A stretch of DNA of 64,000 bases from Caldora sp. (GCA_965222765.1 CBDCVG010000043.1:97053-161052); one strand, 5' to 3'. Positions 3,769 through 57,276 are shown, counted from the stretch's first letter. Program-made: numbers and translations. The notes: a model not told the origin generated them from the sequence alone.

Positions 3769-5724
3769 ATGGCCCTGTCTCAATCATCTTGGAAAGCGCT
3801 ATCAGTTTTAATCGTTACAGCAGTTGCTACTACCACTGGGTTATACTCACCTACATCTACCCTAGCCGTCCCAGAAACAGAGCAAATTGTCCAGGGGGAG
3901 GAAGATTCTCAAGCTATCCCTAAACCCTCTGGACATACAGAAAACGTCAAATCTATTGCTATGAGCCCTGATGGTCAGATTCTCGTTAGTGGGGGTGATG
4001 ACCAGACTATCAATATCTGGGATTTAACTAGTGGTGAGCTAGTTCGTACCATTTCCTCAGAAAAATGGGTGTATGACATTGCTATTAGCCCAGATGGCAG
4101 AACTATTGCTAGTGGTAGTAGTGACCAAACGATCAAGATCTGGGATTCCTATACAGGAGAATTACTGCAAAGTCTTTCTGGACATAAGGACAACGTAATT
4201 GCTGTTGCCTTTAGCCCTGACGGACAAACTCTAGTGAGTGGTAGTTGGGACAAAACTATCCGAGTATGGGATCTAAATACAGGAGAGTTGATGCGAACTC
4301 TTTCTGGACACACCGGCTTAGTAGTTTCTCTGGCTATTAGTCCAGATGGTTTATTAATTGCCAGTGGTGATTCTGAGGGGGTAGTTAATGTCTGGAATCT
4401 GGACGCAGATGAGCCGGTCTACACCCTTACTGGACATTCAACTTGGGCTAGGTCTTTAGCTTTCAGCCCTGATAGTCAAACCTTAGTTAGTAGCAGTTTA
4501 GACAATAAAGATAGCATTAAGGTTTGGAACCTGCGGACTGGCAAACTCAGAAGAACCATCAGTTCAGGAGATTGGGTTTATTCGATTATTTTCTCGAGTG
4601 ATGGTAAAACCTTGATTGGTGGCACGAATCGCAAAACCCTCAAAAGTTGGAATCTGAAGACTGGTGAACTTAAAGGTACTTTTACTGGACATGAGGAACC
4701 GATTTATGCGATCGCTCTGAGTCCCGATGGCCAAACGCTTGCTAGTGGTGGTGGTGACAGGCAGATCAAGGTGTGGGAAGTCTCTCCCCTAGCAGAAACT
4801 ATTGCAAGGGAGGAAGTTGCACTACTCAACACCCTTACCGGTCATAGTGAGGGTGTTCGAGCTGTAGCAATTAGTCCTGATGGGCAAACTATTGTTAGTG
4901 GCTCTCTCGATAACACTCTCAAAATTTGGGAGCTCAGTACAGGTGAGTTGCTTCATACTCTTGAGGGACACGAACAACCGATTTGGGCGGTAGCGATTAG
5001 TCCTGATGGACAAACCATTGTTAGTGGTAGCCTGGACAATACTCTCAAAACTTGGGATCTCAATACAGGTGAGCTAGTTCATACCCTTGATGAGCACACA
5101 GAAGCAATTTTAGCTGTAGCCATTAGTCCCGATGGAGAAACTATTGTTAGTGGCAGTGCCGACAAAACGATTAAGATTTGGGAGATAGAGACAGGGGAGT
5201 TGCAGAATACTCTTGAAGGAAATACTGACTCTGTTGCCTCCCTTGCCATTAGTCCGGACGGACAAACCCTGGTGAGTGGGAGTGACGAAGTAATCAAAAT
5301 TTGGGAGCTAGAGACAGGAGACTTGCAAGATACTTTCACCGGACATGCTAACTACGTTGCCTCCCTAGCGATTAATGCCAGCGAGGATGCCTTCTTTGAG
5401 GGTTTAGGACCAAGACTAGTGAGTACCGGTGACGAAAAAATCAGGATTTGGAACCTCAAGACTGGAGAGTCACAAGATATCCTCGAAGGGCATTGGAGCC
5501 GTGTTTACTCCCTGGCTCTTAGCTCCAATGGACATACCCTAGTAAGTGGGGGAGTGGACAAAAATATCAAGCTGTGGAATTTGAGTACAGGTGTCCTCCA
5601 AGATATTTTCCCTGGACACGATGCTTGGATTTATTCCCTTGCCATCAGCTCTGATGGACAGACCCTTGTGAGTGGGAGCTTAGATAAAACCATTAAGATT
5701 TGGCAAATGCCCCAGAGATTTTAG
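3769..5724 (+). CDS. WD40 repeat protein (about 14 WD repeats) with an N-terminal signal/anchor
   Basis: Repeated GHxxxVxxVAISPDGQTLVSGSxDxTIKIW units. Confidence 0.9.
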   Translation: MALSQSSWKALSVLIVTAVATTTGLYSPTSTLAVPETEQIVQGEEDSQAIPKPSGHTENVKSIAMSPDGQILVSGGDDQTINIWDLTSGELVRTISSEKWVYDIAISPDGRTIASGSSDQTIKIWDSYTGELLQSLSGHKDNVIAVAFSPDGQTLVSGSWDKTIRVWDLNTGELMRTLSGHTGLVVSLAISPDGLLIASGDSEGVVNVWNLDADEPVYTLTGHSTWARSLAFSPDSQTLVSSSLDNKDSIKVWNLRTGKLRRTISSGDWVYSIIFSSDGKTLIGGTNRKTLKSWNLKTGELKGTFTGHEEPIYAIALSPDGQTLASGGGDRQIKVWEVSPLAETIAREEVALLNTLTGHSEGVRAVAISPDGQTIVSGSLDNTLKIWELSTGELLHTLEGHEQPIWAVAISPDGQTIVSGSLDNTLKTWDLNTGELVHTLDEHTEAILAVAISPDGETIVSGSADKTIKIWEIETGELQNTLEGNTDSVASLAISPDGQTLVSGSDEVIKIWELETGDLQDTFTGHANYVASLAINASEDAFFEGLGPRLVSTGDEKIRIWNLKTGESQDILEGHWSRVYSLALSSNGHTLVSGGVDKNIKLWNLSTGVLQDIFPGHDAWIYSLAISSDGQTLVSGSLDKTIKIWQMPQRF

Positions 5725-5894: not shown

Positions 5895-6245
5895 ATGACA
5901 GAATTTTTAGATTTTCTTAAGCACAAATTTGCCTATGTTGCGATCGGAGAATTCAAACCAGGTAAGTTTGAAGAAGCAGAGCAGCTCTTTGAAAAAGCCG
6001 TATCAACTTATACCCACGGTTTTAAGGGAGCCTATCTACTGCAAGAACCTGGCACTGATAAAGGTATTGCTGTTATTTTTTGGGAAAATATTGACGATAT
6101 GGAAGACAATCAAAATGAGGCTTACCAAGCAATTTTGCACGAAATGTCTCCTTTGTTTGCCCAACCTCCAACCACATCTTTCTATGAAGTGTGTAGTGAA
6201 ATTCCAGGACAAAGTAGTGAGCGCCTAACGGCGAATGAAGAATGA
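5895..6245 (+). CDS. Hypothetical protein (116 aa); stop codon lies inside an STRR array
   Basis: ORF track. The C-terminal ANEE-stop is encoded by the gaatgaa heptamer repeats. Confidence 0.5.
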   Translation: MTEFLDFLKHKFAYVAIGEFKPGKFEEAEQLFEKAVSTYTHGFKGAYLLQEPGTDKGIAVIFWENIDDMEDNQNEAYQAILHEMSPLFAQPPTTSFYEVCSEIPGQSSERLTANEE

Positions 6246-6286
6246 AGAATGAAGAATGAAGAATTAAGAATTAAGAATTAAGAATT
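6234..6286. repeat. STRR heptanucleotide tandem array (AATGAAG x4 then AATTAAG x3)
   Basis: Read directly from the sequence. Confidence 0.85.
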
Positions 6287-6295
6287 CATTGATAG

Positions 6296-6470
6296 AATCG
6301 CTGAAAAAGAAGTCAGAAAATAGTCATATCAAGGGATTCAGCCATTCCTTTTCATTTTTAGTTTCTGCAGAGTAATGAGTAATGATTGAATTACCCTTGA
6401 TTAGCTTCCATATTTTTTCCATTGTGCAAGGATTTTGAGCCCATTGATATAAAAACCTTGCACCTTCTTG
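6296..6470. repeat. Dispersed repeat family 2, copy 1 (second copy at 18300-18560); ends in the 40-nt hairpin module shared with the MITE family
   Basis: gaagtcagaaaatagtcatatcaagg...ttttcatttttagtttctgcagagtaatgagt...ccattgtgcaagg recurs at 18300-18560. Confidence 0.5.
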
Positions 6471-6480
6471 AAAAATTACC

Positions 6481-6797
6481 TAGGGCTTGCTGTATAAGTC
6501 AATATGCACTCATTACTTAGGGCTTGCTGCAAAAGTGTGGAAACTATACCAGGCAAAGCTTTCAATCATTTTATACTTTGCCAAGTGCAAGGTTTTTGTA
6601 TCTTTTGGCTCAATTTCCTTGCACCGTAAGTCGAAAATCCCTAACACCTACTACCTCCAACCTCACCTACCACCTACCACCTACCACCTAACACCTATTC
6701 AAACCCGAAAGTTACGACTTATTCAGCAAGCCCTACTTATTACTCATTACTTATTACTTCAAAACCCGAATGAATCGATTTATTCAGCAAGCCCTAA
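6481..6797. mobile_element. Nested MITE-like elements of family 1 (terminal inverted repeats TAGGGCTTGCTG): outer ends at 6481-6500 and 6778-6797, full inner copy 6517-6735 in minus orientation
   Basis: The inner copy is near-identical to the reverse complement of 29355-29573. The element carries an internal TAGGTGG-type heptamer array and a tgcaaggttttt...aaaaaccttgca hairpin. Confidence 0.6.
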
Positions 6798-10462: not shown

Positions 10463-10482
10463 TAGGGCTTGCTGAATAAGTC
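10463..10482. repeat. Solo terminal repeat of MITE family 1 (TAGGGCTTGCTGAATAAGTC)
   Basis: Exact match to the element ends at 25637 and 29355. Confidence 0.5.
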
Positions 10483-10718
10483 CATTGATTCGGTTTTTTA
10501 AGTAATAAACGTGTCTCCTGTCTGAGCCTGATATGCTAGTCCAGAATCAAAACACTCTCGGGAGAATCCCATTGGTATGCGAAAGTTTTTGTGGAGAGTA
10601 TCGCTGGGTTTAGTCACGATTAGTATCCCAAAATTGGCAGTTCAGATCGATCTCGATTAGTAGGTTATTATCGTTAAATTAGTGTCTTCCTAATCTCTAA
10701 ATTCACCCAAAAAACTGG

Positions 10719-12941: not shown

Positions 12942-13793
12942 ATGAAAATCTTCACTTATGCAATTATCTCATTGGGTATAGGGTTTACTCTTGCTTTGGG
13001 GGGATGTGGATTGCAAAAGACTGCCTCACAACCTAAGGAAATAGGCAATTTCAGTAGCTTTGTCGATTGGTGTGAAAATCAAAAAAATCTTTCTGAGGAG
13101 GCGAACAAGACGGTTGATATACTGTTGTTTATAGCTGATACTAAGCAATGTAGTAATGCTAGTGACAATCTTGCTAGCCTTACTGAACTCGACCTTGGCT
13201 ACAAGGAAATATCTGACCTCAGACCCCTTTCATCCCTAACTAATCTCACTACTCTCTACCTCAGTGCCAATGAAATCTCAGATCTCCGACCCCTTGCATC
13301 CCTAACTAACCTGACGAATCTCTATCTTAGGGATAATGACATATCCTACCTCAGTCCGATCAAATCCCTGACTAACTTGACAGGACTCGATCTTGCTGCT
13401 AACAAAATATCCGAATTAAGCCCCCTCAAATCTTTAACTAAGTTGACTGACTTAGTCCTCAGTGACAATAAAATAACCAACATCAGTCCTCTCGAATCCT
13501 TGACGAAGCTAGAAACAATCCACCTCAGCAACAATGAAATAACAGACATTAGTCCCCTCGAATCCCTGACGAAGCTAGAAACAATTCACCTCAGTGACAA
13601 TGAAATAGCAGACATTAGTCCCCTCGAATCCCTGACGAAGCTAGAAACAATTCACCTCAGTGACAATGAAATAGCAGACATCAGTACCCTTGCATCCCTG
13701 GCTAAACTAGAAAAAATCTATCTTAAAGGGAATCAACTAATTTATGAAACTTGCCCATTGGAGTCAGAGGAGGTTTGTCATTTTGATGAATAA
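12942..13793 (+). CDS. Leucine-rich-repeat lipoprotein (internalin-like LRRs); three near-identical 66-nt tandem repeats at about 13485-13700
   Basis: Signal peptide plus LALGGCG lipobox, then LxxLxxLxLxxNxIxDIxPL repeats. Confidence 0.8.
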   Translation: MKIFTYAIISLGIGFTLALGGCGLQKTASQPKEIGNFSSFVDWCENQKNLSEEANKTVDILLFIADTKQCSNASDNLASLTELDLGYKEISDLRPLSSLTNLTTLYLSANEISDLRPLASLTNLTNLYLRDNDISYLSPIKSLTNLTGLDLAANKISELSPLKSLTKLTDLVLSDNKITNISPLESLTKLETIHLSNNEITDISPLESLTKLETIHLSDNEIADISPLESLTKLETIHLSDNEIADISTLASLAKLEKIYLKGNQLIYETCPLESEEVCHFDE

Positions 13794-14488: not shown

Positions 14489-17400
14489 TTGGAGATGCCT
14501 ATAATGAAACAAATCAAGCTAGAACAGCATCAATCAGCTAGCGATCGCACCGGACTATACTACTTATATTGGAATAAACTAACCCTCTGTTATTTGTTTG
14601 GAGATTACCAGCAAGCAGTTGAAAATGCTCAGGAAGCTCAACAGTATATAGATGGAGTTGCTGGTTCGCTCCTTATTCCCTTCTTCCATTTCTATGACTC
14701 TCTTTCCTTGTTAGCACTGTATTCTCAAACTTCTGAACCAGAGCAAGAAGAAATTTTACTAAATTCGGATCAATATCTCCTTTGTTCACAGAAACAGCAG
14801 GGAGCAGGGAGCAGGGAGCAGGGAGTAGAGAGAGAGAAAAACTCCAAAAATCATCAAAGGAGTTTTTGTCAGAGATCTAGTATTTTTGACAGGATAGCCG
14901 CTAATCAGCAAAAAATGCAGCAATGGGCAGACTATGCACCACTGAATTTTTTGCATAAATTTGAGTTAGTGGAAGCAGAGCGGTATCGAATCAGGGGTAA
15001 AAAGATGGAGGCAATGGAGTATTATGACCGTGCCATTGCTGGTGCTGCTACTAACGAATATATCCAAGAAGAAGCCTTAGCTAACGAACTGGCAGCTAAA
15101 TTTTATCTAGCATGGGGTAAGCCCAAGATTGCCCAAGTCTATTTGACAGATGCCTACTACGGCTACGCTTGCTGGGGAGCTAAAGCGAAAGTTGAGCAAT
15201 TAGAAAAACACTATTCCCAATTCCTCGCTCCCATTATGACTAGGGAAAGAGGTAGTCTGACAGATGATACTGTCTCCAACTTAAGCACTGAAGCCATCAC
15301 TTCTAGCAGTAGCAATGATTCAGCTATTCTGGATTTGGCAGCAGTGATGAAAGCTTCCCAACTGCTCTCTGGCGAAATTCACCTGGCTCCCTTGCTCTCC
15401 ACTTTGCTGGAAGTAATGATGGAAAATGCCGGAGCTCAGAAAGGTTCTCTGCTGTTACTTGAAGCGGATAATTTAATTATTGCAGCCCAATGTATCACTG
15501 GTCAACAGTGTAACCTCCAACCAATTCCCTTGGAATCCAGTGGTGAGATTTCCCACGCCGCGATTAATTATGTTTGGCTTACTCAACAAATTTTCGTAAG
15601 TAATGAGGCAACAGCAGAAACGAGCTTAGTTGCCGATCCTTACATTATCAATGTGCAGCCTAAATCTCTGTTGTGTCTACCCATTATCCAACAAGGCAAA
15701 CTAGTTGGTATTCTTTACCTGGAAAATAACCTGACGGCAGGAGCATTTACCAACGATCGTATCGAAATTTTACAACTCCTGTGTACTCAAGCTGCTATTA
15801 CCTTGGACAATGCCCAGCTTTACCAACAGCTAGAAGAATATTCTCACACCTTAGAGAAGAAAGTCCAAGAGCGTACTCAGCAATTGCAAGAGGAAATTCA
15901 AGAACGACAGCAAGTAGAAGAAACCCTCAAGCAACTGAATCAAAAGCTAAAAACCAAATTTGAAGAACTTGGACAAATGAATTTGGCTCTAGCAAACGCC
16001 ATGCCAGGAATTGCTAAACTCAGCACTGAAGGTCATTATCTAGAAGTCAATAACTCCTATGCTCAAATAGTTGGCTACCAACCAGAGGAAATGCTGGGAA
16101 TCAACTGGGAGATAACCGTTCATCCTGAGGATATACCAATTGCAATCGCTGCCTACAAAAAGATGCTAATTGAGGGTAAAGGGGAGTTTGAAGCTAGGGG
16201 AGTTCGCCGGGATAGTTCTATTTTCTACAAACAAGTGTTAATGGTGAAAGCTGATGTGAATCTTGCTGGTTTTGAGGGTCACTACTGCTTTTTCAAGGAT
16301 ATAAGCGAACGGAAACAGGCGGAGGAGGCACTAAGAGAGAGCGAAGAACGCTATCGCTCCCTTTATGAACATACCCCAGTTATGTTGCATTCTATCGACT
16401 CCATGGGCAAATTAATCAGTGTCAGTAACTATTGGCTGAAAAAGCTAGGTTATGAGCGCTCCGAAGTTCTTGGGAGAAAATCTACAGAATTTTTGACAGA
16501 AGAGTCTCGCCGTTATGCTAAAGAAGTGATGATGCCTAAATTTTTTCGGGCAGGAAGTTGTTTAGAAATTCCTTATCAGTTTGTCTGCAAAAATGGCAAA
16601 ATTATTGATGTACTCCTTTCTGCTATTACTGAACAGGATAAATCTGGCAAGATAGTTCGTTCCCTAGCAGTTTTAGTCGATGTAACCAAACGTAAGCAAG
16701 CCGAGAAAGCACTGCAACAGGCCAAAGAAGCTGCTGAAGTTGCTAACCAAGCCAAAAGCCAATTTTTAGCTAACATGAGTCACGAATTGCGTACTCCCCT
16801 CAACGGCATTCTCGGCTATACTCAAATTCTGCAACGTTCCCAGGAACTCAACTCCCAGCAACAAAAAGGTATTGATACCATCCACGCCTGCGGCAGTCAT
16901 TTGCTGACTCTGATTAACGATATTTTAGACATCTCCAAAATCGAAGCCGGGAAAATGGAACTCTCTCCCGAAAATTTCCACTTTCCTAACTTTTTGCGCA
17001 GTGTTGTCGAAATCTGCCACATCCGTGCTCAACAACAAGAAATTACTTTTACCTACCAATTCTCTAATCAACTACCTACCGCTGTCTATACAGATGAAAA
17101 ACGACTCAGGCAAGTTTTGATTAATTTGTTGAGTAATGCGATCAAATTTACCAATACTGGTAGCGTTAATTTTAACGTAAGTGTCATTAGTCATTGGTCA
17201 ACAGCCAACAACCAACAACCAACAACAAATAACCAACAACAAATAACCAACAACAAAATTCGGTTTGAGATTGAAGACACTGGTATTGGTATCGCAGTAG
17301 AAGAGCTAGAAAAAATCTTTGAACCCTTTGAACAAGTAGGACACAGCAGCCACAAAGCAGAAGGAACTGGACTAGGATTAGCCATTACCCAGAAAATTGT

Positions 17401-18205
17401 CTCTCAGATGGGAGGGCAACTCCAAGTCGAAAGTACCTTAGGAGTTGGTAGTACCTTTTGGTTCGATATAGAATTACCCCAATCCTCAAAATTAATTGAA
17501 CTACCGATTGTCAATTACTCCAACAAGATAATTGGCTACCAGGGTGACAAGAAAAAAATTCTGGTGGTAGATGATTGCTGGGAAAATCGTGCAGTTCTTG
17601 TTAATTTTCTCGAACCTATCGGCTTTGAAATGAGGGAGGTAACAAACGGAATAGAAGGTTTAGAGCAAGCCAAAGAATTTCAACCAGATTTAATGATCAT
17701 TGACCTAGTGATGCCAGTGATGGATGGTTTTGAGCTAACCCGATCTCTGCGCCAGTTACCAGAATTTAAAGAGACAATTTTGATTGCTTCTTCGGCGAGT
17801 GTTTCTGAGTTTTATCAGCAACAAAGTCAGGAAATAGCTTGTAATTATTTCCTACCTAAGCCTATACAAACAGGAGATTTACTGACCCAAATCAGAAATT
17901 TCTTAAAATTAATCTGGGTATATGATGATACTGAGAAATTATTCAGCCAGCAGCAATCTAATGGCTATAATTCAGTCAGAGAAATTCAAGTAACAAACAT
18001 TATACCTCCTGCTGTTGAGGAACTAAATATCTTGTATGACTTAGCCAGAAAAGGTTGGATCGACAACCTCATTGAGCAGGGGGAGAAATTGAAAAATTTG
18101 GATAATAAATATGTGCCCTTTGCTCAACAACTTCAGGAATTAGCTAAAGAATTTAAAATCAAGAAAATTAGAGAATTTCTGGAACAATATATCAGGAGTA
18201 GTTAG
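14489..18205 (+). CDS. Hybrid sensor histidine kinase (TPR-like region, GAF, PAS/PAC x2, HisKA, HATPase_c, REC, conserved C-terminal extension), N-terminally truncated relative to the ancestral STK-AAA form
   Basis: H-box SHELRTPLNGILGY. The C-terminal REC has D in IIDLVMP. The N-terminal 250 aa match the post-AAA TPR region of giant kinases. In-frame STRRs lie inside the ORF. Confidence 0.85.
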   Translation: MEMPIMKQIKLEQHQSASDRTGLYYLYWNKLTLCYLFGDYQQAVENAQEAQQYIDGVAGSLLIPFFHFYDSLSLLALYSQTSEPEQEEILLNSDQYLLCSQKQQGAGSREQGVEREKNSKNHQRSFCQRSSIFDRIAANQQKMQQWADYAPLNFLHKFELVEAERYRIRGKKMEAMEYYDRAIAGAATNEYIQEEALANELAAKFYLAWGKPKIAQVYLTDAYYGYACWGAKAKVEQLEKHYSQFLAPIMTRERGSLTDDTVSNLSTEAITSSSSNDSAILDLAAVMKASQLLSGEIHLAPLLSTLLEVMMENAGAQKGSLLLLEADNLIIAAQCITGQQCNLQPIPLESSGEISHAAINYVWLTQQIFVSNEATAETSLVADPYIINVQPKSLLCLPIIQQGKLVGILYLENNLTAGAFTNDRIEILQLLCTQAAITLDNAQLYQQLEEYSHTLEKKVQERTQQLQEEIQERQQVEETLKQLNQKLKTKFEELGQMNLALANAMPGIAKLSTEGHYLEVNNSYAQIVGYQPEEMLGINWEITVHPEDIPIAIAAYKKMLIEGKGEFEARGVRRDSSIFYKQVLMVKADVNLAGFEGHYCFFKDISERKQAEEALRESEERYRSLYEHTPVMLHSIDSMGKLISVSNYWLKKLGYERSEVLGRKSTEFLTEESRRYAKEVMMPKFFRAGSCLEIPYQFVCKNGKIIDVLLSAITEQDKSGKIVRSLAVLVDVTKRKQAEKALQQAKEAAEVANQAKSQFLANMSHELRTPLNGILGYTQILQRSQELNSQQQKGIDTIHACGSHLLTLINDILDISKIEAGKMELSPENFHFPNFLRSVVEICHIRAQQQEITFTYQFSNQLPTAVYTDEKRLRQVLINLLSNAIKFTNTGSVNFNVSVISHWSTANNQQPTTNNQQQITNNKIRFEIEDTGIGIAVEELEKIFEPFEQVGHSSHKAEGTGLGLAITQKIVSQMGGQLQVESTLGVGSTFWFDIELPQSSKLIELPIVNYSNKIIGYQGDKKKILVVDDCWENRAVLVNFLEPIGFEMREVTNGIEGLEQAKEFQPDLMIIDLVMPVMDGFELTRSLRQLPEFKETILIASSASVSEFYQQQSQEIACNYFLPKPIQTGDLLTQIRNFLKLIWVYDDTEKLFSQQQSNGYNSVREIQVTNIIPPAVEELNILYDLARKGWIDNLIEQGEKLKNLDNKYVPFAQQLQELAKEFKIKKIREFLEQYIRSS

Positions 18206-18299: not shown

Positions 18300-18560
18300 A
18301 GTTTTTTCTACCTAAAAAGAAGCCAGAAACTAGTCATATCAAGGAATTTCTACTTCTTTTTTCATTTTTAGTTTCTCGAGAGTAATAAGTGAATTATACC
18401 AAATCCGCTTTAGCTAGACCACAAATATGTCAACTAAAAGTCATGTATATCAAGCTTTGCTCAATAAGATATATGGTCTGTAGTAACCGGATTTGGTATT
18501 ACCCCTCGATTAGCTTCCAGATTTTTTCCATTGTGCAAGGGTTTGATACGACATTTGGTA
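18300..18560. repeat. Dispersed repeat family 2, copy 2, interrupted by a nested ~105-bp mini-MITE (18394-18498; 12-bp TIR ataccaaatccg / cggatttggtat)
   Basis: Aligning with copy 1 (6296-6470) shows the insertion between gaatta and cccttg. Confidence 0.5.
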
Positions 18561-18873: not shown

Positions 18874-21800
18874 ATGAGAGGTGACTGTATATCTAGCCTA
18901 ATAACTCAAACTTTTACTGCTATCGGTACTAGTAGTTCAGCTGTTCTGGACTTGACAAAGGTAATCAAAGCTTCCCAAGCTTTCTTTGAGGAAATTTACC
19001 TGGCTCCTTTGCTCTCCACTGTGCTCCAAGTAATGATGGAAAATGCCGGAGCAGACAAAGGGGCTCTGCTGTTACTCGAAGCTGATAACCTGGTTATTGC
19101 TGCTCAATGTATTAGTGGTCAACAGTGCAACCTTCAACCAATCCCCATTGAGTCTAGCTCTAAGCTTCCCATCACTGCCATTAACTATGTCTGGCACACT
19201 CAACAAACTTTGGTAAGTAACGAGGTAAAAGCAGAAACTTTCTTGGCAGCTGATTCTTACATCATCGGTACACAACCCCAATCTTTGTTGTGCTTACCTA
19301 TAATTCACCAAAGCAAACTCATTGGCATCCTTTACCTGGAAAATCAGCTGACAGCGGGTATTTTTACCAGCAATCGCCTCGAAATTCTCAAACTCCTCTG
19401 TGCTCAAACTGCCATTGCTCTGGAAAATGCTCGACTTTACCAACAGCTAGAAGCATATTCTGAAACCCTCGAACAGAAAGTTCAAAAGCGCACTCACGAA
19501 TTACAGCAAGAAATTAGAGGGCGCCAGGAAGTAGATTCAGCACTCCGTCTCTCAGAGGAAAAGTTTGCTAAAGCCTTTCTTTGTAGTCCTAATGCCATTA
19601 CAATTACTTCCCTGAGTGATGGCAAACACCTTGAGGTCAACGATAGTTTCTGTAGTTTTACTGGTTACTCTGCTGAAGAAATCCTTGGTTATACAGCAAT
19701 GGAGCTGAATCTGTGGGTCAATGCAGAAGACCGTGATCGCTTATTCAATGCTATACAAGATACAAAGGTTATTCGCAACTATGAATTCGATTTCCGCACT
19801 AAATCAGGAGCTGTGAGAACAGCGCTCTTATCAGCAGAAATTATCACTCTTCACGGACAAAAATGCCTACTTTCCCTTTCCAATGATATCACTGAGCGCC
19901 AGCAAGCATCCAAATCACTGGCTCAATTGAATCTAGCTCTGGCAAATGCTATGCCAGGAATTGCTAAACTCAGTACCGAAGGTCGTTATGTGGAAGTCAA
20001 TGACTCCTATGCCAAAATTGCAGGTTACGAACCCGAAGAAATGATTGGGGTGCAATGGCAAGAAAGCATTTATCCTGAAGATCTACCCATTGCGATCGCT
20101 GCCTATGAAAGGATGTTAGTAGAAGGCAAAGCTGAATTTGAAGCCAGAGGAGTTCGCCAAGATGGCTCTATTTTCTACAAACAAGTCCTAATGGTAAAAG
20201 CTGATCTTAACCGTGCAGGCTTTGAAGGTCACTACTGCTTTTACAAAGATATCAGCGATGCCTATCAGCGAGCGGAACAACGCAGACAAACAGAAGCTGC
20301 TCTAGAGCACCAAAATCAACAACTCCAGCAAGAAATCTCAGAGCGTCAACGCATAGAGGCAATGCTTGATGGACAAAATCGTATCCTCGAACTAATTGCC
20401 AAAGGAAAGCCTCTCTCAGAGATCTTAGATAGCCTAGCACAGTTTATTGAATGGCTTTCAGGTGAGGCTTTATGTTCTTTTCTGCTACTGGAGAGCAATA
20501 CAGGAAAACTTCGACATGGTGCTGCTCCTAGTCTACCAGATAGCTATAACCAAGCAGTTGATGGTATAGCTATTGGTCCTAAGGTGGGGTCTTGTGGTAC
20601 AGCGGCTTACTCCAAGAAAACGGTGATTGTCTCAGATATTGCGACTAATTACCTGTGGGAAGATTTTAAAGATTTAGCATTACAGTACAATCTTCGTGCC
20701 TGTTGGTCTACACCAGTTATTGCTAGGGAAGAAGTGCTGGGTACTTTCGCCATGTATTACGGCGAATCAAAAACCCCTAGTCCTGAAACTCAAAAGTTGA
20801 TTGACAAAGCGACTTATTTAGCAAGAATAGCAATCGAACACGACAGAACTACGCAAGCTTTGCAACAGGCAAAAGAAGCTGCTGATGCTGCCAACCGAGC
20901 CAAAAGCCAATTTTTAACCAATATGAGCCACGAACTACGCACTCCCCTCAACGGCATTCTCGGCTATACTCAACTTTTCCAACGTTCTGCTGAACTCACA
21001 CCCCAGCAACAAAAAGGCATCAACACCATTCACACTTGCGGCACTCACCTGCTTACCTTAATTAACGATATTTTAGACCTCTCCAAAATCGAAGTAGAGA
21101 AAATGGAACTCTACCCCCACGACTTTCATTTGCCTAACTTCTTATGGGGAGTGACACAAATGTGTCAGATTCGCGCTCAACAAAAAGGAATTACTTTTGC
21201 CTACCAACCCAGTAATCAACTACCGACTGCTGTTCATGCTGATGAAAAACGGCTGCGGCAAGTGTTGATTAACCTGCTGGGTAATGCCATTAAATTTACC
21301 GATAGTGGTGGTGTAACTTTTAAGGTAAGTGTTATTAGTCAAGAGCAAAGGACAAATGACGTAGGACAAATGACTAATCAAATCAGGTTTGAGGTAGAAG
21401 ATACTGGTATTGGTATAGCCACAGAGGAACTAGAAAAAATCTTTGAGCCTTTTGAGCAAGTGGGAGACAATCAGCATAAATCAGAAGGCACCGGACTGGG
21501 ATTAGCCATCACCAAGAAAATTATCTCTCTGATGGGAAGCCAACTCCAAGTCGAAACTACCTTGGGAGATGGTAGCACCTTTTGGTTCGAGCTAGAATTA
21601 CCCCAAGCCTCAGAATCGATGCAGTTAAGAACTCAGAGTTCTTTGAGGGAAATAATTGGCTATCAAGGGGATAGGAAGAAAATTCTTGTGGTAGATGACT
21701 ACGATGAAAATCGTTTGGTTTTCGTCAAGTTGCTCGAACCCCTTGGCTTTGAAATTAGAGAAGCATCTAACGCAGAAGAAGCTGTAGAGCAAGGGATTAA

Positions 21801-22332
21801 GTTTCGACCAAATTTGATGATCATTGATTTGGTGATGCCAGGGATAGATGGTTTTGAATTGACTCAATATCTACGCCAGTTAGCTGAGTTTGAACGGACG
21901 ATTTTGATCGCTTCTTCCGCCAGTGTCTCTGAGTTTTATCAAGTTCAGAGTAAAGAAGTTGGTTGCAATGATTTTCTCGCTAAACCAATACAAGCGGAAG
22001 ATTTGCTCCTTAAAATTCGAGATAACTTAGAGTTGACATGGGTGTACAAAGATGATAATAAAATGCCAAATCAACCGACTTTAGCTCTAACTAATTCCTC
22101 CCAAGGCATTCAATCAACTACAATAATTACTCCCTCTATTGAAGAACTAAATACCTTATATGATTTGGCTAAAAAAGGGCTAATTGATAGCTTGATAGAG
22201 CAAGCAGAGAAATTGAAAGACTTAGATCTTAAATATTTGAGTTTTGCTCAAAAAATTCAACAATTAGCTCAAAATTTTGAAATTAAAGCAATTAGAAATT
22301 TACTTCAAGAATATATAAATAGGGCTTGCTGA
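18874..22332 (+). CDS. Hybrid sensor histidine kinase, paralog of 14489-18205 (GAF, PAS x2, GAF, HisKA, HATPase_c, REC, C-terminal extension)
   Basis: Collinear with HK1 from its residue ~258 onward. H-box SHELRTPLNGILGY. Stop codon supplied by a MITE terminal repeat. Confidence 0.85.
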   Translation: MRGDCISSLITQTFTAIGTSSSAVLDLTKVIKASQAFFEEIYLAPLLSTVLQVMMENAGADKGALLLLEADNLVIAAQCISGQQCNLQPIPIESSSKLPITAINYVWHTQQTLVSNEVKAETFLAADSYIIGTQPQSLLCLPIIHQSKLIGILYLENQLTAGIFTSNRLEILKLLCAQTAIALENARLYQQLEAYSETLEQKVQKRTHELQQEIRGRQEVDSALRLSEEKFAKAFLCSPNAITITSLSDGKHLEVNDSFCSFTGYSAEEILGYTAMELNLWVNAEDRDRLFNAIQDTKVIRNYEFDFRTKSGAVRTALLSAEIITLHGQKCLLSLSNDITERQQASKSLAQLNLALANAMPGIAKLSTEGRYVEVNDSYAKIAGYEPEEMIGVQWQESIYPEDLPIAIAAYERMLVEGKAEFEARGVRQDGSIFYKQVLMVKADLNRAGFEGHYCFYKDISDAYQRAEQRRQTEAALEHQNQQLQQEISERQRIEAMLDGQNRILELIAKGKPLSEILDSLAQFIEWLSGEALCSFLLLESNTGKLRHGAAPSLPDSYNQAVDGIAIGPKVGSCGTAAYSKKTVIVSDIATNYLWEDFKDLALQYNLRACWSTPVIAREEVLGTFAMYYGESKTPSPETQKLIDKATYLARIAIEHDRTTQALQQAKEAADAANRAKSQFLTNMSHELRTPLNGILGYTQLFQRSAELTPQQQKGINTIHTCGTHLLTLINDILDLSKIEVEKMELYPHDFHLPNFLWGVTQMCQIRAQQKGITFAYQPSNQLPTAVHADEKRLRQVLINLLGNAIKFTDSGGVTFKVSVISQEQRTNDVGQMTNQIRFEVEDTGIGIATEELEKIFEPFEQVGDNQHKSEGTGLGLAITKKIISLMGSQLQVETTLGDGSTFWFELELPQASESMQLRTQSSLREIIGYQGDRKKILVVDDYDENRLVFVKLLEPLGFEIREASNAEEAVEQGIKFRPNLMIIDLVMPGIDGFELTQYLRQLAEFERTILIASSASVSEFYQVQSKEVGCNDFLAKPIQAEDLLLKIRDNLELTWVYKDDNKMPNQPTLALTNSSQGIQSTTIITPSIEELNTLYDLAKKGLIDSLIEQAEKLKDLDLKYLSFAQKIQQLAQNFEIKAIRNLLQEYINRAC

Positions 22333-22365
22333 ATAAGTTTTTTGTGAGAAGAGGCAATGGTGAGC

Positions 22366-23514: not shown

Positions 23515-24333
23515 GTGCCCATGATTGACGTAATTTTTTGTATTCTGACATTCTTTATCCTGGCGGCAGTGGGCTTTTCTCGCCAACAAGCAATTAGTGT
23601 CGATATACCTAAAGCAAGAACTGGAACGCCACAAGGGCAGGAAATCTTGATGATTACCCTTGATCAGTCGGGTGAGGTTTATGTTGAAAAAGAACGTATG
23701 CTAAGGAAAGAGCAGTTTAAGCGCAAACTAGAGGCATATCGTCAACAGAATCCTGGTGGATTGATGGCGCTCTATGCTTCGGAAAATGCCCGTTACAATC
23801 AGGTTGTGCAGGTGTTGGATTTTCTTAGGGAAGTCGGAGGCGAGCGGGTAGCGCTAGCAACTCTAGCTGGGGAATTGCCAACTAGTAACCAGCCTGCTAC
23901 GCAACCACCAGGTACTTCTGTCCCTGGCTTAGATCCTAACCAGCAACCAGGTACTTCTATCCCTGGCATCACACCACCAACTCCAGGTACTTCTATCCCT
24001 GGCATCACACCACCAACTTCAGGTACTTCTATCCCTGGCATCACACCACCAACTCCAGGTACTTCTATCCCTGGCATCACACCACCAACTTCAGGTACTT
24101 CTATCCCTGGCATCACACCACCAACTTCAGGCACTTACCCTAATCAACAGCCACAAGGATTACCCAACTTCAACGGTTCCAGTCCAGGTAATCAACAGCC
24201 ACAAGGATCACCTAATTTGAACAGTCCAAGTCCAGGTAATCTACAACAATCTTTGCCTGGAGACACAGGGGTGAGTCCGAATCCTCGTCCTACAGCTTCT
24301 CCAAGAAAGAGTAATACTCTTCCTGAGAGTTAA
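23515..24333 (+). CDS. ExbD/TolR-family biopolymer transport protein with a C-terminal Pro/Thr-rich tandem-repeat extension; start uncertain (GTG 23515 or ATG 23521)
   Basis: PMIDVIFCILTFFILAAV TM helix and ExbD periplasmic core. Six 36-nt repeats encoding PGTSIPGITPPT at 23946-24130. Confidence 0.7.
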   Translation: MPMIDVIFCILTFFILAAVGFSRQQAISVDIPKARTGTPQGQEILMITLDQSGEVYVEKERMLRKEQFKRKLEAYRQQNPGGLMALYASENARYNQVVQVLDFLREVGGERVALATLAGELPTSNQPATQPPGTSVPGLDPNQQPGTSIPGITPPTPGTSIPGITPPTSGTSIPGITPPTPGTSIPGITPPTSGTSIPGITPPTSGTYPNQQPQGLPNFNGSSPGNQQPQGSPNLNSPSPGNLQQSLPGDTGVSPNPRPTASPRKSNTLPES

Positions 24334-24485
24334 TTTAATTCTCCCCCATGGAGTTGTCAAACGACTACGAATGTTCCCCTGCGGCTACCTACTTCCTTAC
24401 TCAAGCAGATAGATGAAGCTGTTCAAAAAAGGGTGATAAAGATGCCGCACTTAGCGGATACTTGGAACAGATGAGCGATCGCGAT

Positions 24486-24652
24486 CACCGAAAGCGGCAC
24501 CGAAGCCCATTCCTTTAGGGATGGGAGGGATAGCTGCCCGCCGCTTGGTTGGCAAGTTATTTGTTAGAAAGTTTTTTGTACAAACAACCAACAACTAACA
24601 ACTTACTAACACTTGTATCCCCCGTGCTGTCTTCCGGGGGATGAGGGGTGAA
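24486..24652. repeat. Dispersed repeat family 3 copy (caccgaaagcggcaccgaagcccattcc ... hairpin ... GGGGATGAG)
   Basis: Near-identical copies at 52719-52885 and 53396-53570. Confidence 0.55.
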
Positions 24653-25560: not shown

Positions 25561-25636
25561 AGAGAATTACAACAAAGGCACACCAGGGTAAAAAGAAAGG
25601 TTCCGATCGCTTACTCAGATCAACCCAACACATAAC

Positions 25637-25857
25637 TAGGGCTTGCTGAATAAGTCGTAATTTTCGGGTTTGAATAGGTGGTAGGTGGTAGGTGGCAGGT
25701 GGTAGGTAAGGTATTAGGTATTAGGTGTTAGGGAATTTTCCACGAAAGTGCAAGGTTTTTGAGCCCATAGATGCAAAAACCTTGCACTTGTTTGGCTTAC
25801 CATAGGATTGAAAGCCTCGTCACCGCATGGCTTCCACACTTATGCAGCAAACCCTAA
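25637..25857. mobile_element. MITE family 1 copy (plus orientation)
   Basis: TAGGGCTTGCTGAATAAGTC at the left end and GCAGCAAACCCTAA at the right end. Internal TAGGTGG heptamer array and hairpin gtgcaaggtttttgagcccatagatgcaaaaaccttgcac. Confidence 0.65.
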
Positions 25858-26036
25858 CTACATATATAGCAGTTATCGCATCCGTGAGATACAGTCAATT
25901 TTGACGAGCCTATTCCTTAGAATTGGGGTTTAGACTAAAAATTTAATGTCTATGGACTGACTTGTTAGGCATTATTTCGGTTTCCTTTTTCACCAACCAG
26001 GTAGATGATAAATAGAATTACGACGAGCACATCTTA

Positions 26037-28285: not shown

Positions 28286-29353
28286 ATGTCTACAAACCTC
28301 ACTTCCCAGTCTCCCAACCCCGTATATCCCATTATCTGGCAAGAAGACAAAGTTGTACTGATTGACCAAACTCAACTGCCAGAAAAGTACACCACTGTAG
28401 AAATTAATGACTATCAGGAGATGGCGCAAGCAATCAAAACTATGATTGTCCGAGGTGCCCCTGCCATTGGTATTGCAGCAGCTTATGGGATGTACCTGGG
28501 AGCAAGGGAAATTCAGACAACAGACAGAGATACCTTCCTTAACCAACTCGAAGAAATTGCTCAGCAGTTGCGCCAGACTCGTCCCACAGCAGTTAATTTA
28601 TTTTGGGCGATCGCACGGATGTTGAAAACTGCTCAGGAGACACAGGGTTCATTGGAGCAGCTTCAGGCATCTTTGTTGGCAACAGCTCAAGCAATTCAAA
28701 CTGAAGATTTACACACTTGTCAAGCAATTGGCGATCGCGGTTTAGAAATTTTACCATCTCAACCTCAGCAATTAACTCTGTTAACTCACTGTAATGCTGG
28801 AGCACTAGCAACAGCTGGTTATGGTACTGCCTTAGGTGTAGTGCGCTCAGCATGGCGGGAGGGAAGACTAAATCGAGTCTATGCAGATGAAACCCGTCCC
28901 CGCTTGCAAGGAGCCAAGCTTACTTCCTGGGAATGTGTGCAAGAAGGCATACCAGTTACGGTAATTACCGATAACATGGCAGCTCATTGTATGAAACAGG
29001 GGTTAATTGATGCAGTAGTTGTAGGAGCGGATCGGATTACTGCGAATGGGGACGTTGCTAACAAAATAGGCACTTATAGTTTAGCGATCGCAGCTGTTGC
29101 TCACAATATTCCTTTCTTTGTTGCTGCGCCTTTATCTACTATTGATTTTAAGCTAGCTACCGGCAGTGAAATCCCAATAGAAGAGCGCCACCCCTCGGAA
29201 ATCTATCAAGTAGGGGAAACGGTCTTGTGTCCACCAAGAGTAGAGTTTTATAATCCCGCCTTTGATGTTACACCTGCGAAGTTAATCACAGCAATTATTA
29301 CTGAGCAGGGTGCGGTTGCGCCTGAGAAGTTGGGACGACTTAGGGCTTGCTAA
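28286..29353 (+). CDS. mtnA: S-methyl-5-thioribose-1-phosphate isomerase (eIF-2B alpha/beta/delta family)
   Basis: 355 aa with the characteristic MtnA length and motifs ([32 protein letters not shown]). Last codons and stop come from a MITE end. Confidence 0.85.
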
Positions 29354-29354
29354 A

Positions 29355-29573
29355 TAGGGCTTGCTGAATAAGTCGTAACTTTCGGGTTTGAATAGGTGTT
29401 AGGTGTTAGGTGGTAGGTGGTAGGTGAGGTTGGAGGTAGTAGGTGTTAGGGATTTTCGACTTACGGTGCAAGGAAATTGAGCCAAAAGATACAAAAACCT
29501 TGCACTTGGCAAAGTATAAAATGTTTGAAAGCTTTGCCTGGCATAGTTTCCACACTTTTGCAGCAAGCCCTAA
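29355..29573. mobile_element. MITE family 1 copy (plus orientation), preceded by a partial tandem terminal repeat at 29341-29354
   Basis: Reverse complement is near-identical to 6517-6735. Confidence 0.65.
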
Positions 29574-29643
29574 ATAAGTCGGGTGGTGACGAGAGGCAAC
29601 AGCTCATCTGGCAACAGGCAACAGTTCCGGAGTGATTATCCAT

Positions 29644-52637: not shown

Positions 52638-52718
52638 AACATATTTTACCGACTGCGAATACAGGTAGAATTATTTAGATTCGCTGCCGCTCAATTGTTA
52701 GCTGGTCGGCATTCATCT

Positions 52719-52885
52719 CACCGAAAGCGGCGGGAAGCCCATTCCTTCTAAGGATGGGAGGGATAGCAGCCCGCCGCTTGGTTGGCAAGTTATTTGTTAG
52801 AAAGTTTTTCTTGACAAACAACTAACAACCAACAACAAATAACGCTTGCATCCCACGTACTTTAGTCGTGGGATGAGCTTAACGC
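52719..52885. repeat. Dispersed repeat family 3 copy
   Basis: Aligns with 24486-24652 and 53396-53570. Confidence 0.55.
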
Positions 52886-53395: not shown

Positions 53396-53570
53396 TCACC
53401 GAAAGCGGCACCGAAGCCCATTCCTTAAGGGATTGGAGGGATAGCCGCCTGCCGCTTGGTTGTTAGTTGTTTGTTAGTTGTTTGTTAGAAAGTTTTTTGA
53501 CAAACAACCAACAACTAATAACTTGCTAACACGAAATCCCCCATGCTTTAGCCGGGGGATGAGTTAAATG
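53396..53570. repeat. Dispersed repeat family 3 copy
   Basis: Aligns with 24486-24652 and 52719-52885. Ends with hairpin atcccccatgctttagccgggggat then GAGTTAA. Confidence 0.55.
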
Positions 53571-56450: not shown

Positions 56451-56495
56451 AGCTAGGATAGTTTTATACTCTTTTACCCTATTTCGGAAACACCT

Positions 56496-56933
56496 ATGGT
56501 TAAAACTAATGATAATGACTCAGTTGTAATCAATGCATCTATTTATGATGAGATTACAGATAAGTTAATTCCTGAAGAATTAGCGATTGAGAATCAAGGT
56601 ACAAGTGAACTGATTACTAAAGATAATGAGCCTGTACTGCAAGCGGTCATTCAACAGCAAAGCACAAAGGAACTAGGAACTGATGTTCATAACTCACTTG
56701 TGATAAAAGCTCCTATTTATGACGAGATTACAGAAGATTTATTGACTCAAAAAGCATCTATTACCAATGAAGGTAGAAAGGGATTAGTTACTGAGGATAA
56801 TGATTTTTTAGGGCAAACTGTGTTGCCACAGCAAAGCAACAGGGAAATAGTAAGTGAAGGTGATGAATTAATTATGGTCAAAGCACCTATTTACGATGAA
56901 ATTACAGAAGATTTATTGACTCAAGAGGGTTAA
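56496..56933 (+). CDS. Hypothetical protein made of three ~48-aa repeats (KAPIYDEITEDLLTQ...)
   Basis: Internal triplication visible in the translation. AT-rich. Stop immediately followed by a MITE end fragment. Confidence 0.45.
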   Translation: MVKTNDNDSVVINASIYDEITDKLIPEELAIENQGTSELITKDNEPVLQAVIQQQSTKELGTDVHNSLVIKAPIYDEITEDLLTQKASITNEGRKGLVTEDNDFLGQTVLPQQSNREIVSEGDELIMVKAPIYDEITEDLLTQEG

Positions 56934-57276
56934 ATAGGGCTTGCTGCATCAGTGTGAAAACTATACCAGACAGGGCTTCAAAAGGAGCCAGTCAAGGGTG
57001 AGCGAAAAAACGTGTGGGGAAAAGAGTAAGCAGACACGGAGACGCGGAGATGCGGAGATATTGAAATCCCACGCAAAATTTCGTTCACCCGCCAGTCAAG
57101 AAACCCGGTTTCTGAGGGATACTGATATTTCTTTGTTGTCCTCACAAGAAACCGAGTTTTTGATACCTCTCTTCTGTCACTCTGGGATATTTCCACGAAT
57201 TTACGGCATTACAGCCAAGGTAAAATCAACGTTTCAACCCGGTTTGACAGAAGAGAGGTAATACTTAAACGGCGCT

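Follow-up and report, generated by a model that had tools for sequence, protein, structure and literature searches.

The small repeats dispersed in the window (the whole stretch of DNA analysed, 64 kb long) are genuine MITEs: they have terminal inverted repeats (TIRs) and target-site duplications, occur in many copies and have no coding content. Very probably they are the non-autonomous elements of a Symploca-like filamentous cyanobacterium, and from their ends we infer mobilisation in trans by an IS5-family DDE transposase of the ISMae6/ISAcma17 type. What is directly observed comprises the terminal repeats, the duplications, the presence or absence of copies between strains and the existence of a same-ended IS in the same genus.

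Structure of the elements

The 64-kb window has 12 matches to the terminal repeat TAGGGCTTGCTG (at most one mismatch) against 0.34 expected, and none of 100 shuffled windows reached this number (maximum 2). These ends delimit three full copies and several solo ends, of which those at 10463, 22320, 29341 and 56935, listed to within one base in the earlier note, were recovered by the end search of the window. The full copies and two of the solo ends are as follows.

6518-6735, minus strand: MITE copy 1, 218 bp, with the A-end (IRR-like) at 6735 and the B-end (IRL-like) at 6518; heptamer array at about 6641-6697, hairpin at 6585-6624; flank repeat TACTTA at 6514-6519 and 6734-6739
25637-25856, plus strand: MITE copy 2, 220 bp; heptamers at about 25675-25731, hairpin at 25748-25787; flank repeat TAACTA at 25633-25638 and 25855-25860
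29355-29572, plus strand: MITE copy 3, 218 bp; heptamers at 29393-29449, hairpin at 29466-29505; flank repeat TAAATA at 29351-29356 and 29571-29576
10463-10508, plus strand: solo A'-end, TAGGGCTTGCTGAATAAGTCCATTGATTCGG...AAGTAATAA; the right end of the outer element, at 6796, belongs to the same subfamily
56935-56983, plus strand: solo B-end; the ORF upstream (56457-56933) has its native TAA within the TAAATA flank

Three near-identical copies of about 220 bp with perfect 12-bp TIRs had been claimed for this DNA. Three full copies do exist, at positions one base away from those first given, but only copies 1 and 3 are near-identical (98.6%), whereas copy 2 is merely about 81% identical to either. 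Likewise, the 12-nt inverted repeat is perfect (12/12) in copies 1 and 3 and has one mismatch (11/12) in copy 2. The repeat continues imperfectly to about 19 nt (TAGGGCTTGCTG.A..AGT). All three copies have the internal heptamer array and the 40-nt hairpin previously ascribed to them, in a common layout that runs from the A-end TAGGGCTTGCTGAATAAGTCGTAAYTTTCGGGTTTGAA through about eight TAGGTGK heptamers and the hairpin to the B-end (...GGAAACTATRCCAGG...CACACTTWTGCAGCAAGCCCTA). The hairpin (GTGCAAGG...CCTTGCAC) has four matches in the window, with none expected. The full copies are within the size range of MITEs (under about 600 bp) and non-coding, holding internally only short chance ORFs of 41-55 aa, and fold modestly better than their shuffles (z = -2.5). 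Such an element is modular, with an A-end equal to the IRR of an IS, a heptamer array, a hairpin module and an IRL-like B-end.

Target site and flank duplication

Perfect direct TA-NN-TA hexamers, counted with the TA that opens the terminal repeat, flank all three window copies (TAAGTA, which is TACTTA on the plus strand, TAACTA and TAAATA) as well as a fourth copy, from Symploca sp. SIO2C1 (TAAATA). The same target is seen in other genomes. Among the matches listed, TA is found at -4/-3 in 102 of 119 ends, an inverted partner, mostly 180-350 nt off, is present for 49 ends, and 35 of these 49 paired elements, which come from many cyanobacteria and some Bacteroidota, are bordered by perfect 6-nt repeats in which NN takes ten different forms. 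Insertion at TA-NN-TA leaves the hexamer on either side. By sequence, a duplication of 2 bp (NN), 4 bp (ANNT) or 6 bp cannot be told apart, and under each of the three models the empty site would be one TANNTA.

A probable autonomous IS5-family partner

An autonomous IS with the same TIRs, which the earlier note had proposed to look for, has been found in Symploca sp. SIO2B6 and in other cyanobacteria. One of the matched loci (L038) is the right end of an IS of about 1.65 kb encoding a 477-aa transposase, which has DUF772 and DDE_Tnp_1_2 domains and scores 452 bits on the IS5-family model NCBIfam NF033578 (cut-off, 275 bits); on this model, the range for the three transposases tested is 452-478 bits. 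Partial copies of this type of transposase are present in five further loci, and homologues annotated as 'IS5 family transposase' occur in Symploca, Moorena, Okeania, Microcoleus, Nostoc, Scytonema, Pleurocapsa, Planktothrix and Crocosphaera. The copies of autonomous ISs that share the ends and the TA-NN-TA flanks are 1676-1701 bp long.

Symploca sp. SIO2B6 (L122): 1676 bp; ends TAGGGCTTGCTGCATAAACC... and TAGGGCTTGCTGAATAAGTCGGAG...; flanks TAAGTA and TATGTA, one mismatch
Nostoc sp. MS1, three copies (L123-125): 1677 bp; ends TAGGGCTGGCTGAATAAGG... and TAGGGCTTGCTGAAAAAGTC...; flanks TACATA/TACATA and TAATTA/TAATTA, non-matching in the third copy
Pleurocapsa PCC 7319 (L126): about 1680 bp; ends TAGGGTTTGCTGAATAACTT... 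and TAGAGTTTGCTGAAAAAGTA...; flanks TAGTTA and TAATTA, one mismatch
Microcystis plasmid (L127): 1686 bp; ends TAGGGTTTGCTGAATAATGG... and TAGGGTTTGCTGAAAAAGTC...; TAATTA on both flanks; annotated by PGAP as 'IS5-like element ISMae6 family'
Acaryochloris plasmid (L128): 1701 bp; ends TAGGGCTTGCTTCGGAAGTC... and TAGGGTTTGCTGAGAAAGTA...; TAGTTA on both flanks; annotated by PGAP as 'ISAcma17 family'

The MITE A-end is identical to the IRR of the SIO2B6 IS over 21/21 nt, and the B-end matches its IRL over 14-17 nt. On this likeness, ISs of the ISMae6/ISAcma17 type are the probable source of transposase for the window MITEs; these copies would have been mobilised by that enzyme, and the source genome may carry an active IS. 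Against this reading, the 64-kb window itself holds no transposase of this type. Beyond the terminal 17-21 nt or so, the MITE interior has no similarity to the SIO2B6 IS, and an origin of the interior by internal deletion of the IS ('type I' origin) is not supported on this ground; the absence of an IS-derived interior has no bearing on trans-mobilisation. Also against the reading, the annotated 499-aa transposase of the SIO2B6 IS (L122, 1501-3002) needs a frameshift after ...KKKAQN, where the straight translation ends; this could be programmed slippage at the A-run or the mark of a dead copy.

Gene ends encoded by the terminal repeat

Two unrelated genes of the window, mtnA and the sensor kinase gene HK2, were said to receive their final R-A-C and stop codon from the element end. 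Both tails do lie in it: they are encoded by TAGGGCTTGCT[A/G]A, in the frame T|AGG|GCT|TGC|T[A/G]A. The features concerned are given below (an asterisk denotes the stop codon).

14489-18205: HK1, tandem paralogue of HK2; tail ...EQYIRSS*
18874-22332, plus strand: HK2, hybrid sensor histidine kinase, 1152 aa; tail ...QEYINRAC*
22320-22362, plus strand: solo A-end, TAGGGCTTGCTGAATAAGTTTTTTGTGAG..., which provides the R-A-C-TGA of HK2 (stop codon at 22330-22332)
28286-29353, plus strand: mtnA, S-methyl-5-thioribose-1-phosphate isomerase, 355 aa; last three codons and stop in the terminal repeat, tail ...GRLRAC*
29341-29624 (approximate end), plus strand: older element end split by copy 3; its first 13 nt are the R-A-C-stop of mtnA

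The solo A-end at 22320 occupies the 33-nt spacer between convergent genes. The end of HK2 agrees with the terminal-repeat consensus at 19/19 nt and with the MITE A-end over its first 20 nt. HK1 and HK2 can be aligned up to ...EQYI, and their divergence begins at the TAAATA flank hexamer. The search for a close HK2 orthologue in the protein database returned none, the best hit being partial and 65% identical; distant homologues stop 1-4 residues past the same Y[ILV]. The two paralogues are 71-83% identical in nucleotides over long stretches, and the spacer between them is full of small repeats.

At mtnA, the end at 29341, first described as a solo end, is indeed present, yet it is part of an older and longer end that copy 3 has split. 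When 29341-29356 is joined to 29577 onward, the sequence obtained is TAGGGCTTGCTaAATAAGTCGG, after which GGCAACA heptamers run to about 29624; with copy 3 and one TAAATA removed in this way, the mtnA end agrees with the IS right end at 22/23 nt. Copy 3 is, as read from the sequence, a nested insertion into this older end, which encodes RAC*.

Comparison with Symploca sp. SIO2C1 is informative in this respect. Its mtnA product is 95% identical in amino acids, and the 3.3 kb around the gene are syntenic and 94% identical in nucleotides. SIO2C1 is on these figures the nearest relative, and the window belongs to a marine, filamentous, Symploca-like cyanobacterium; a Nostoc origin is rejected. The mtnA-ylmH spacer measures 46 nt in SIO2C1 and 290 nt in the window, so copy 3 is missing from the orthologous spacer and is polymorphic between strains; since the differences between the two spacers exceed the insertion, they do not form a clean empty/filled pair. 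The SIO2C1 gene ends in TAGGGTTTTCTGA, giving ...LRVF* and a protein also of 355 aa; a terminal-repeat-like mtnA end thus predates the split of the two strains. In other Symploca strains the residues after ...GAVAPG(K/E)L differ again: IRLK* in SIO1C2, where the stop adjoins (TAAGAAT)n (L120, about 2545-2600), and VDLSNK* in SIO2E6, where the tail is encoded by (GTAATAA)n (L121, about 2550-2610). The mtnA tail across Symploca is, to judge from these sequences, variable and repeat-encoded. More distant cyanobacteria have an mtnA ending in ...QLKQPA, and the window gene is the only one with a RAC end among the 120 homologues listed.

A second spacer, at 25857-26029, also differs in repeat content between the window and SIO2C1. 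Upstream of a conserved FAD-oxidase region, the SIO2C1 contig (L117, 1-154) stops inside a 300-bp element of the type found at L019; the counterpart in the window is unrelated sequence and MITE copy 2.

Why elements accumulate at stop codons

When the A-end is read inwards, each frame meets a stop codon within 15 nt: TAG; AGG GCT TGC TGA (RAC*); and GGG CTT GCT GAA TAA (GLAE*). Among the matches listed, 17 of 131 ends terminate ORFs of at least 100 codons, 12 of them through TAG, three through RAC* and two in the third frame (GLAE* and GLAEKVSAL*); mtnA is a fourth RAC* case, outside this pattern count. RAC* tails at the same repeat in other genomes are those of L026 and L053. Where the TAG is used, the native stop codon most likely began with the second TA of the target, and the protein would for that reason be unaltered.

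Sites of the form TA-NN-TA are common in AT-rich spacers, at stop codons (TAA/TAG) and in heptamer arrays of the GTAATAA type, and their abundance there accounts for the piling up of elements at gene 3' ends and for their nesting. Where an element lands at the very 3' end of a gene, the cost is a few residues at most; given that the A-end carries stops in all frames, such insertions may be nearly neutral and be tolerated, leaving RAC-stop tails. To explain the gene-end pattern, it suffices to assume a TA-rich target that takes in stop codons and selection against upstream insertions.

The effect on proteins is trivial for both insertions. The statement that these elements are rewriting the 3' ends of genes was thus too strong: in mtnA and HK2 three residues are replaced, with the length unchanged in mtnA and one residue greater in HK2. 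In these genomes, the final few codons of many genes derive from repeats and are specific to the strain, and in annotation such ends should not be taken as functional C-termini. Heptamer arrays also supply or adjoin C-termini, as in the mtnA genes of SIO2E6 and SIO1C2 and in the window ORF at 5895-6245, which ends in ...TANEE* within a (GAATGAA)n array (6226-6285).

The nested insertion at 6481-6796

The earlier note placed one copy inside another here, and this has been confirmed.

6481-6796, minus strand: outer (host) short element, with four GTAATRA units between an A'-end and a second terminal repeat
6424-6463, plus strand: free-standing hairpin GTGCAAGG...CCTTGCAC, just outside the outer element; a homologue of the hairpin inside the MITEs

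Without 6520-6733 and one TACTTA, the outer element is 98 bp long and reads TAGGGCTTGCTGAATAAATCGATTCATTCGGGTTTTGAA-(GTAATRA)4-GTGCATATTGACTTATACAGCAAGCCCTA; its flanks, TAGTTA and TAGGTA, differ by one base. The 'tactcattac duplication' formerly attributed to the insertion is the periodicity of the (GTAATRA)n array of the outer element, and the real target duplication is TACTTA. The target of the inner copy, TAAGTA, was itself supplied by GTAATAA heptamers. An outer-type end followed by these heptamers is also found at 10463 and in elements of 292-300 bp in Symploca SIO2C1 and Moorena bouillonii, with perfect duplications in both.

The adjoining spacer (6226-6480) contains a heptamer array, a 77-nt repeat and the free-standing hairpin module. 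Besides standing alone here, this hairpin has matches in loci from other cyanobacteria and in one Cyclobacteriaceae contig (L008, L020, L034, L049, L066 and L095), which suggests that the module spreads separately from the MITE. The 77-nt repeat is present at 6304-6380 and 18314-18390, 82% identical, each copy being closely preceded by a heptamer array and the end of a gene.

Heptamer arrays

Among the matches listed, at least three tandem heptamers lie within 90 nt inside the end in 31 of 107 ends, against 15 of 560 windows taken as controls within these loci, so that heptamers are about ten times commoner beside the terminal repeat than in the controls. The unit varies by lineage (AGGAGTC, GGGAACA, AGGCAAC, GGGAGTA, TAGGTGT, GTAATAA). 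Beside the other heptamer arrays of the window, degenerate terminal repeats were not found above chance; since these arrays have no adjoining terminal repeat, not all arrays are MITE-borne. The association between heptamers and the terminal repeat is therefore real but not exclusive, and it is a mildly novel point. The literature searched gave no usable description linking STRR arrays with transposable elements.

A bolder and rather doubtful reading would be that a single modular MITE superfamily with the 19-nt end TAGGGCTTGCTGAAWAAGT, conserved across Nostocales, Oscillatoriales, Microcystis and Pseudanabaena and as far as Bacteroidota, is a major vehicle seeding and spreading the STRR-type heptamer arrays of filamentous cyanobacteria; the arrays could in turn offer fresh TANNTA targets (e.g., GTAATAA), by which nests would build at gene ends. 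The heptamer link and the conservation of the end across phyla could merit a dedicated survey.

Other repeats were noted in the window. A second small family has a reference copy at 24485-24576 and copies at 52718-52809 and 53396-53487 that are 77-86% identical to it; its core is a GC-rich hairpin (AAGCGGCGGG...CCCGCCGCTT), CAACAAN-type heptamers follow each copy, only the copy at 52718 folds clearly better than its shuffles (z = -3.8), and the family has no Rfam match. A gene for a WD40-repeat protein lies at 3769-5724, a 66-nt tandem repeat at 13193-13720, and a 36-nt in-frame tandem repeat encoding a Pro/Thr-rich stretch at 23911-24172.

Distribution beyond the window

The pattern TAGGGCTTGCTGHAWMAGT, scanned against one genome per prokaryotic species, was found at no fewer than 116 loci. 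Cyanobacterial hosts among the matches listed include Nostocales, Oscillatoriales, Microcystis, Pseudanabaena, Chamaesiphon, Synechococcales and others, and about 20 of these matches come from Bacteroidota, Nitrospirota and others. Because roughly 50 chance matches are expected in the entire collection, by our own estimate, isolated non-cyanobacterial matches need caution; most matches, however, can be taken as real elements on account of the TA at -4/-3, the inverted partners and the perfect flank repeats. Several matches lie at contig ends, counted only where the 8-kb block starts at contig position 1.

Elements of 180-350 bp bordered by these ends occur throughout the cyanobacteria, among the matches listed. 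Symploca sp. SIO2C1 has at least nine loci with the terminal repeat, one of which (L069) is a 212-bp copy with the layout of the window copies. Five Bacteroidota contigs (L014, L037, L082, L083 and L092; hosts Indibacter, Cyclobacteriaceae, Algoriphagus, Chitinophaga and Cytophagales) have elements of 240-330 bp with the identical 19-nt end TAGGGCTTGCTGAAAAAGT and perfect TANNTA flanks; by its sequence, this end is conserved across phyla. The interior of the Symploca copies gave no match outside marine filamentous genera. A blastn search of all PLSDB plasmids with the 219-bp copy gave no match, a Nostocales-type copy matched plasmids solely through heptamer arrays, and the terminal-repeat pattern was not found in the viral contigs of IMG/VR.

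Alternative explanations

That the elements are not selfish DNA but functional gene-end elements under selection (for instance terminators, stabilisers of mRNA 3' ends or sRNA genes) is improbable, although it is the alternative to which we give most weight. Their position between convergent genes and directly at stop codons, and a folding somewhat above that of shuffles (z = -2.5), would fit such a role. However, Rfam yields no match at gathering score across the whole window, the hairpin has no U-tract after it, the interior is a mosaic of variable modules, and presence varies between strains that are 94% identical; the location at gene ends follows from a TA-rich target and purifying selection. 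It is even harder to maintain that the RAC-stop tails are native gene ends resembling the terminal repeat by chance. The mtnA of SIO2C1, which has no 218-bp copy, already ends in the similar TAGGGTTTTCTGA, as this explanation would have it, but the window mtnA agrees with the IS right end at 22/23 nt once the nested copy is removed, HK2 matches the consensus at 19/19 nt and departs from HK1 exactly at the flank hexamer, and RAC* recurs at the same repeat in other genomes (L026, L053).

As for the mechanism, a Stowaway-like MITE of the IS630/Tc1-mariner superfamily, duplicating the TA dinucleotide, might be considered, since TA begins and ends every copy and IS630-family elements are common in cyanobacteria (PMC2779907). 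The flank repeat nevertheless has two variable bases beyond TA (perfect in 35/49, among the matches listed), and all the same-ended autonomous elements found encode an IS5-family transposase (DUF772 and DDE_Tnp_1_2), with no IS630-type partner among them, which makes this origin very unlikely. Scarcely any credit can be given to REP/REPIN palindromes spread by a RAYT (an IS200-like tyrosine transposase), or to very small dispersed repeats of the Nostoc type. REPINs are 20-40-nt palindromes in inverted pairs, associated with a RAYT gene and free of target duplications. The genome is rich in short hairpin modules that also stand alone (e.g., 6424-6463), and solo ends are frequent; yet the elements described here have target duplications, the ends of a DDE-type IS and a size of 180-350 bp instead of 20-40 bp, and no RAYT was seen near the copies.

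Comparison with known systems

Cyanobacteria are among the most MITE-rich prokaryotes (PMC11602168; PMC2779907; PMC3542288). To speak of an undescribed MITE family was an overstatement here, since a catalogued IS5-family group (ISMae6/ISAcma17) has these terminal repeats and this TANNTA target; GGGCTTGCTG was not found in the cyanobacterial literature searched. The Symploca subfamily may lack a name of its own, but its kind is well known. It is a genuine MITE family of that kind, in a little-studied genus and with a plausible partner among the catalogued ISs. It is an ordinary find, which leaves the understanding of how MITEs work unchanged. Its value lies in a testable account of gene ends and spacers in very repeat-rich cyanobacterial genomes, in which an IS5-type transposase with a TA-NN-TA target would put small elements on or beside stop codons.

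The closest known elements are ISMae6 and ISAcma17, which share with the window MITEs the ends TAGGG[C/T]TTGCTG..AAGT and the TA-NN-TA flank repeats. ISMae6 is an IS5-family element of 1686 bp, with eight copies in Microcystis aeruginosa NIES-843 (PMC2779907), and the Microcystis plasmid copy measured here has exactly the published length. Unlike these ISs, the window elements are about 219 bp long and non-coding, and have 17-21 terminal nt in common with them. The same Microcystis strain has 517 copies of MaeMITEa-h, of 176-429 bp, MaeMITEa being 219 bp long (PMC2779907); these are likewise cyanobacterial and of similar size, the likeness being one of description. Two Microcystis contigs (L011 and L099) hold elements of 196 and 218 bp with the present terminal repeat and TAATTA and TAAGTA duplications, whereas the interiors of the Symploca copies match nothing outside marine filamentous genera. 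In Anabaena sp. PCC 7120, MITEs of about 224 bp and the fusion of IS or MITE sequence to chromosomal reading frames have been described (Wolk et al., 2010, as relayed in PMC3184786); as described there, they resemble the window MITEs in size class, host group and reading-frame fusion. The Nezha MITE of Anabaena variabilis and Nostoc, of 130-170 bp, has the ends of ISNpu3 (Zhou et al., 2008, as relayed in PMC3184786). According to that description, it is shorter than the window MITEs and resembles them in its IS ends, its duplications and its filled and empty sites between close relatives.

Outside the cyanobacteria, small IS-derived repeats with TA-containing targets are represented by the Correia elements of Neisseria, the RUP elements of Streptococcus pneumoniae and the RPEs of Rickettsia, which land in or beside genes and can alter the ends of reading frames. 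Their sequences, hosts and IS partners are unrelated to those of the window MITEs. RPEs, moreover, insert in frame inside genes, whereas the window MITEs contribute the last three codons only.
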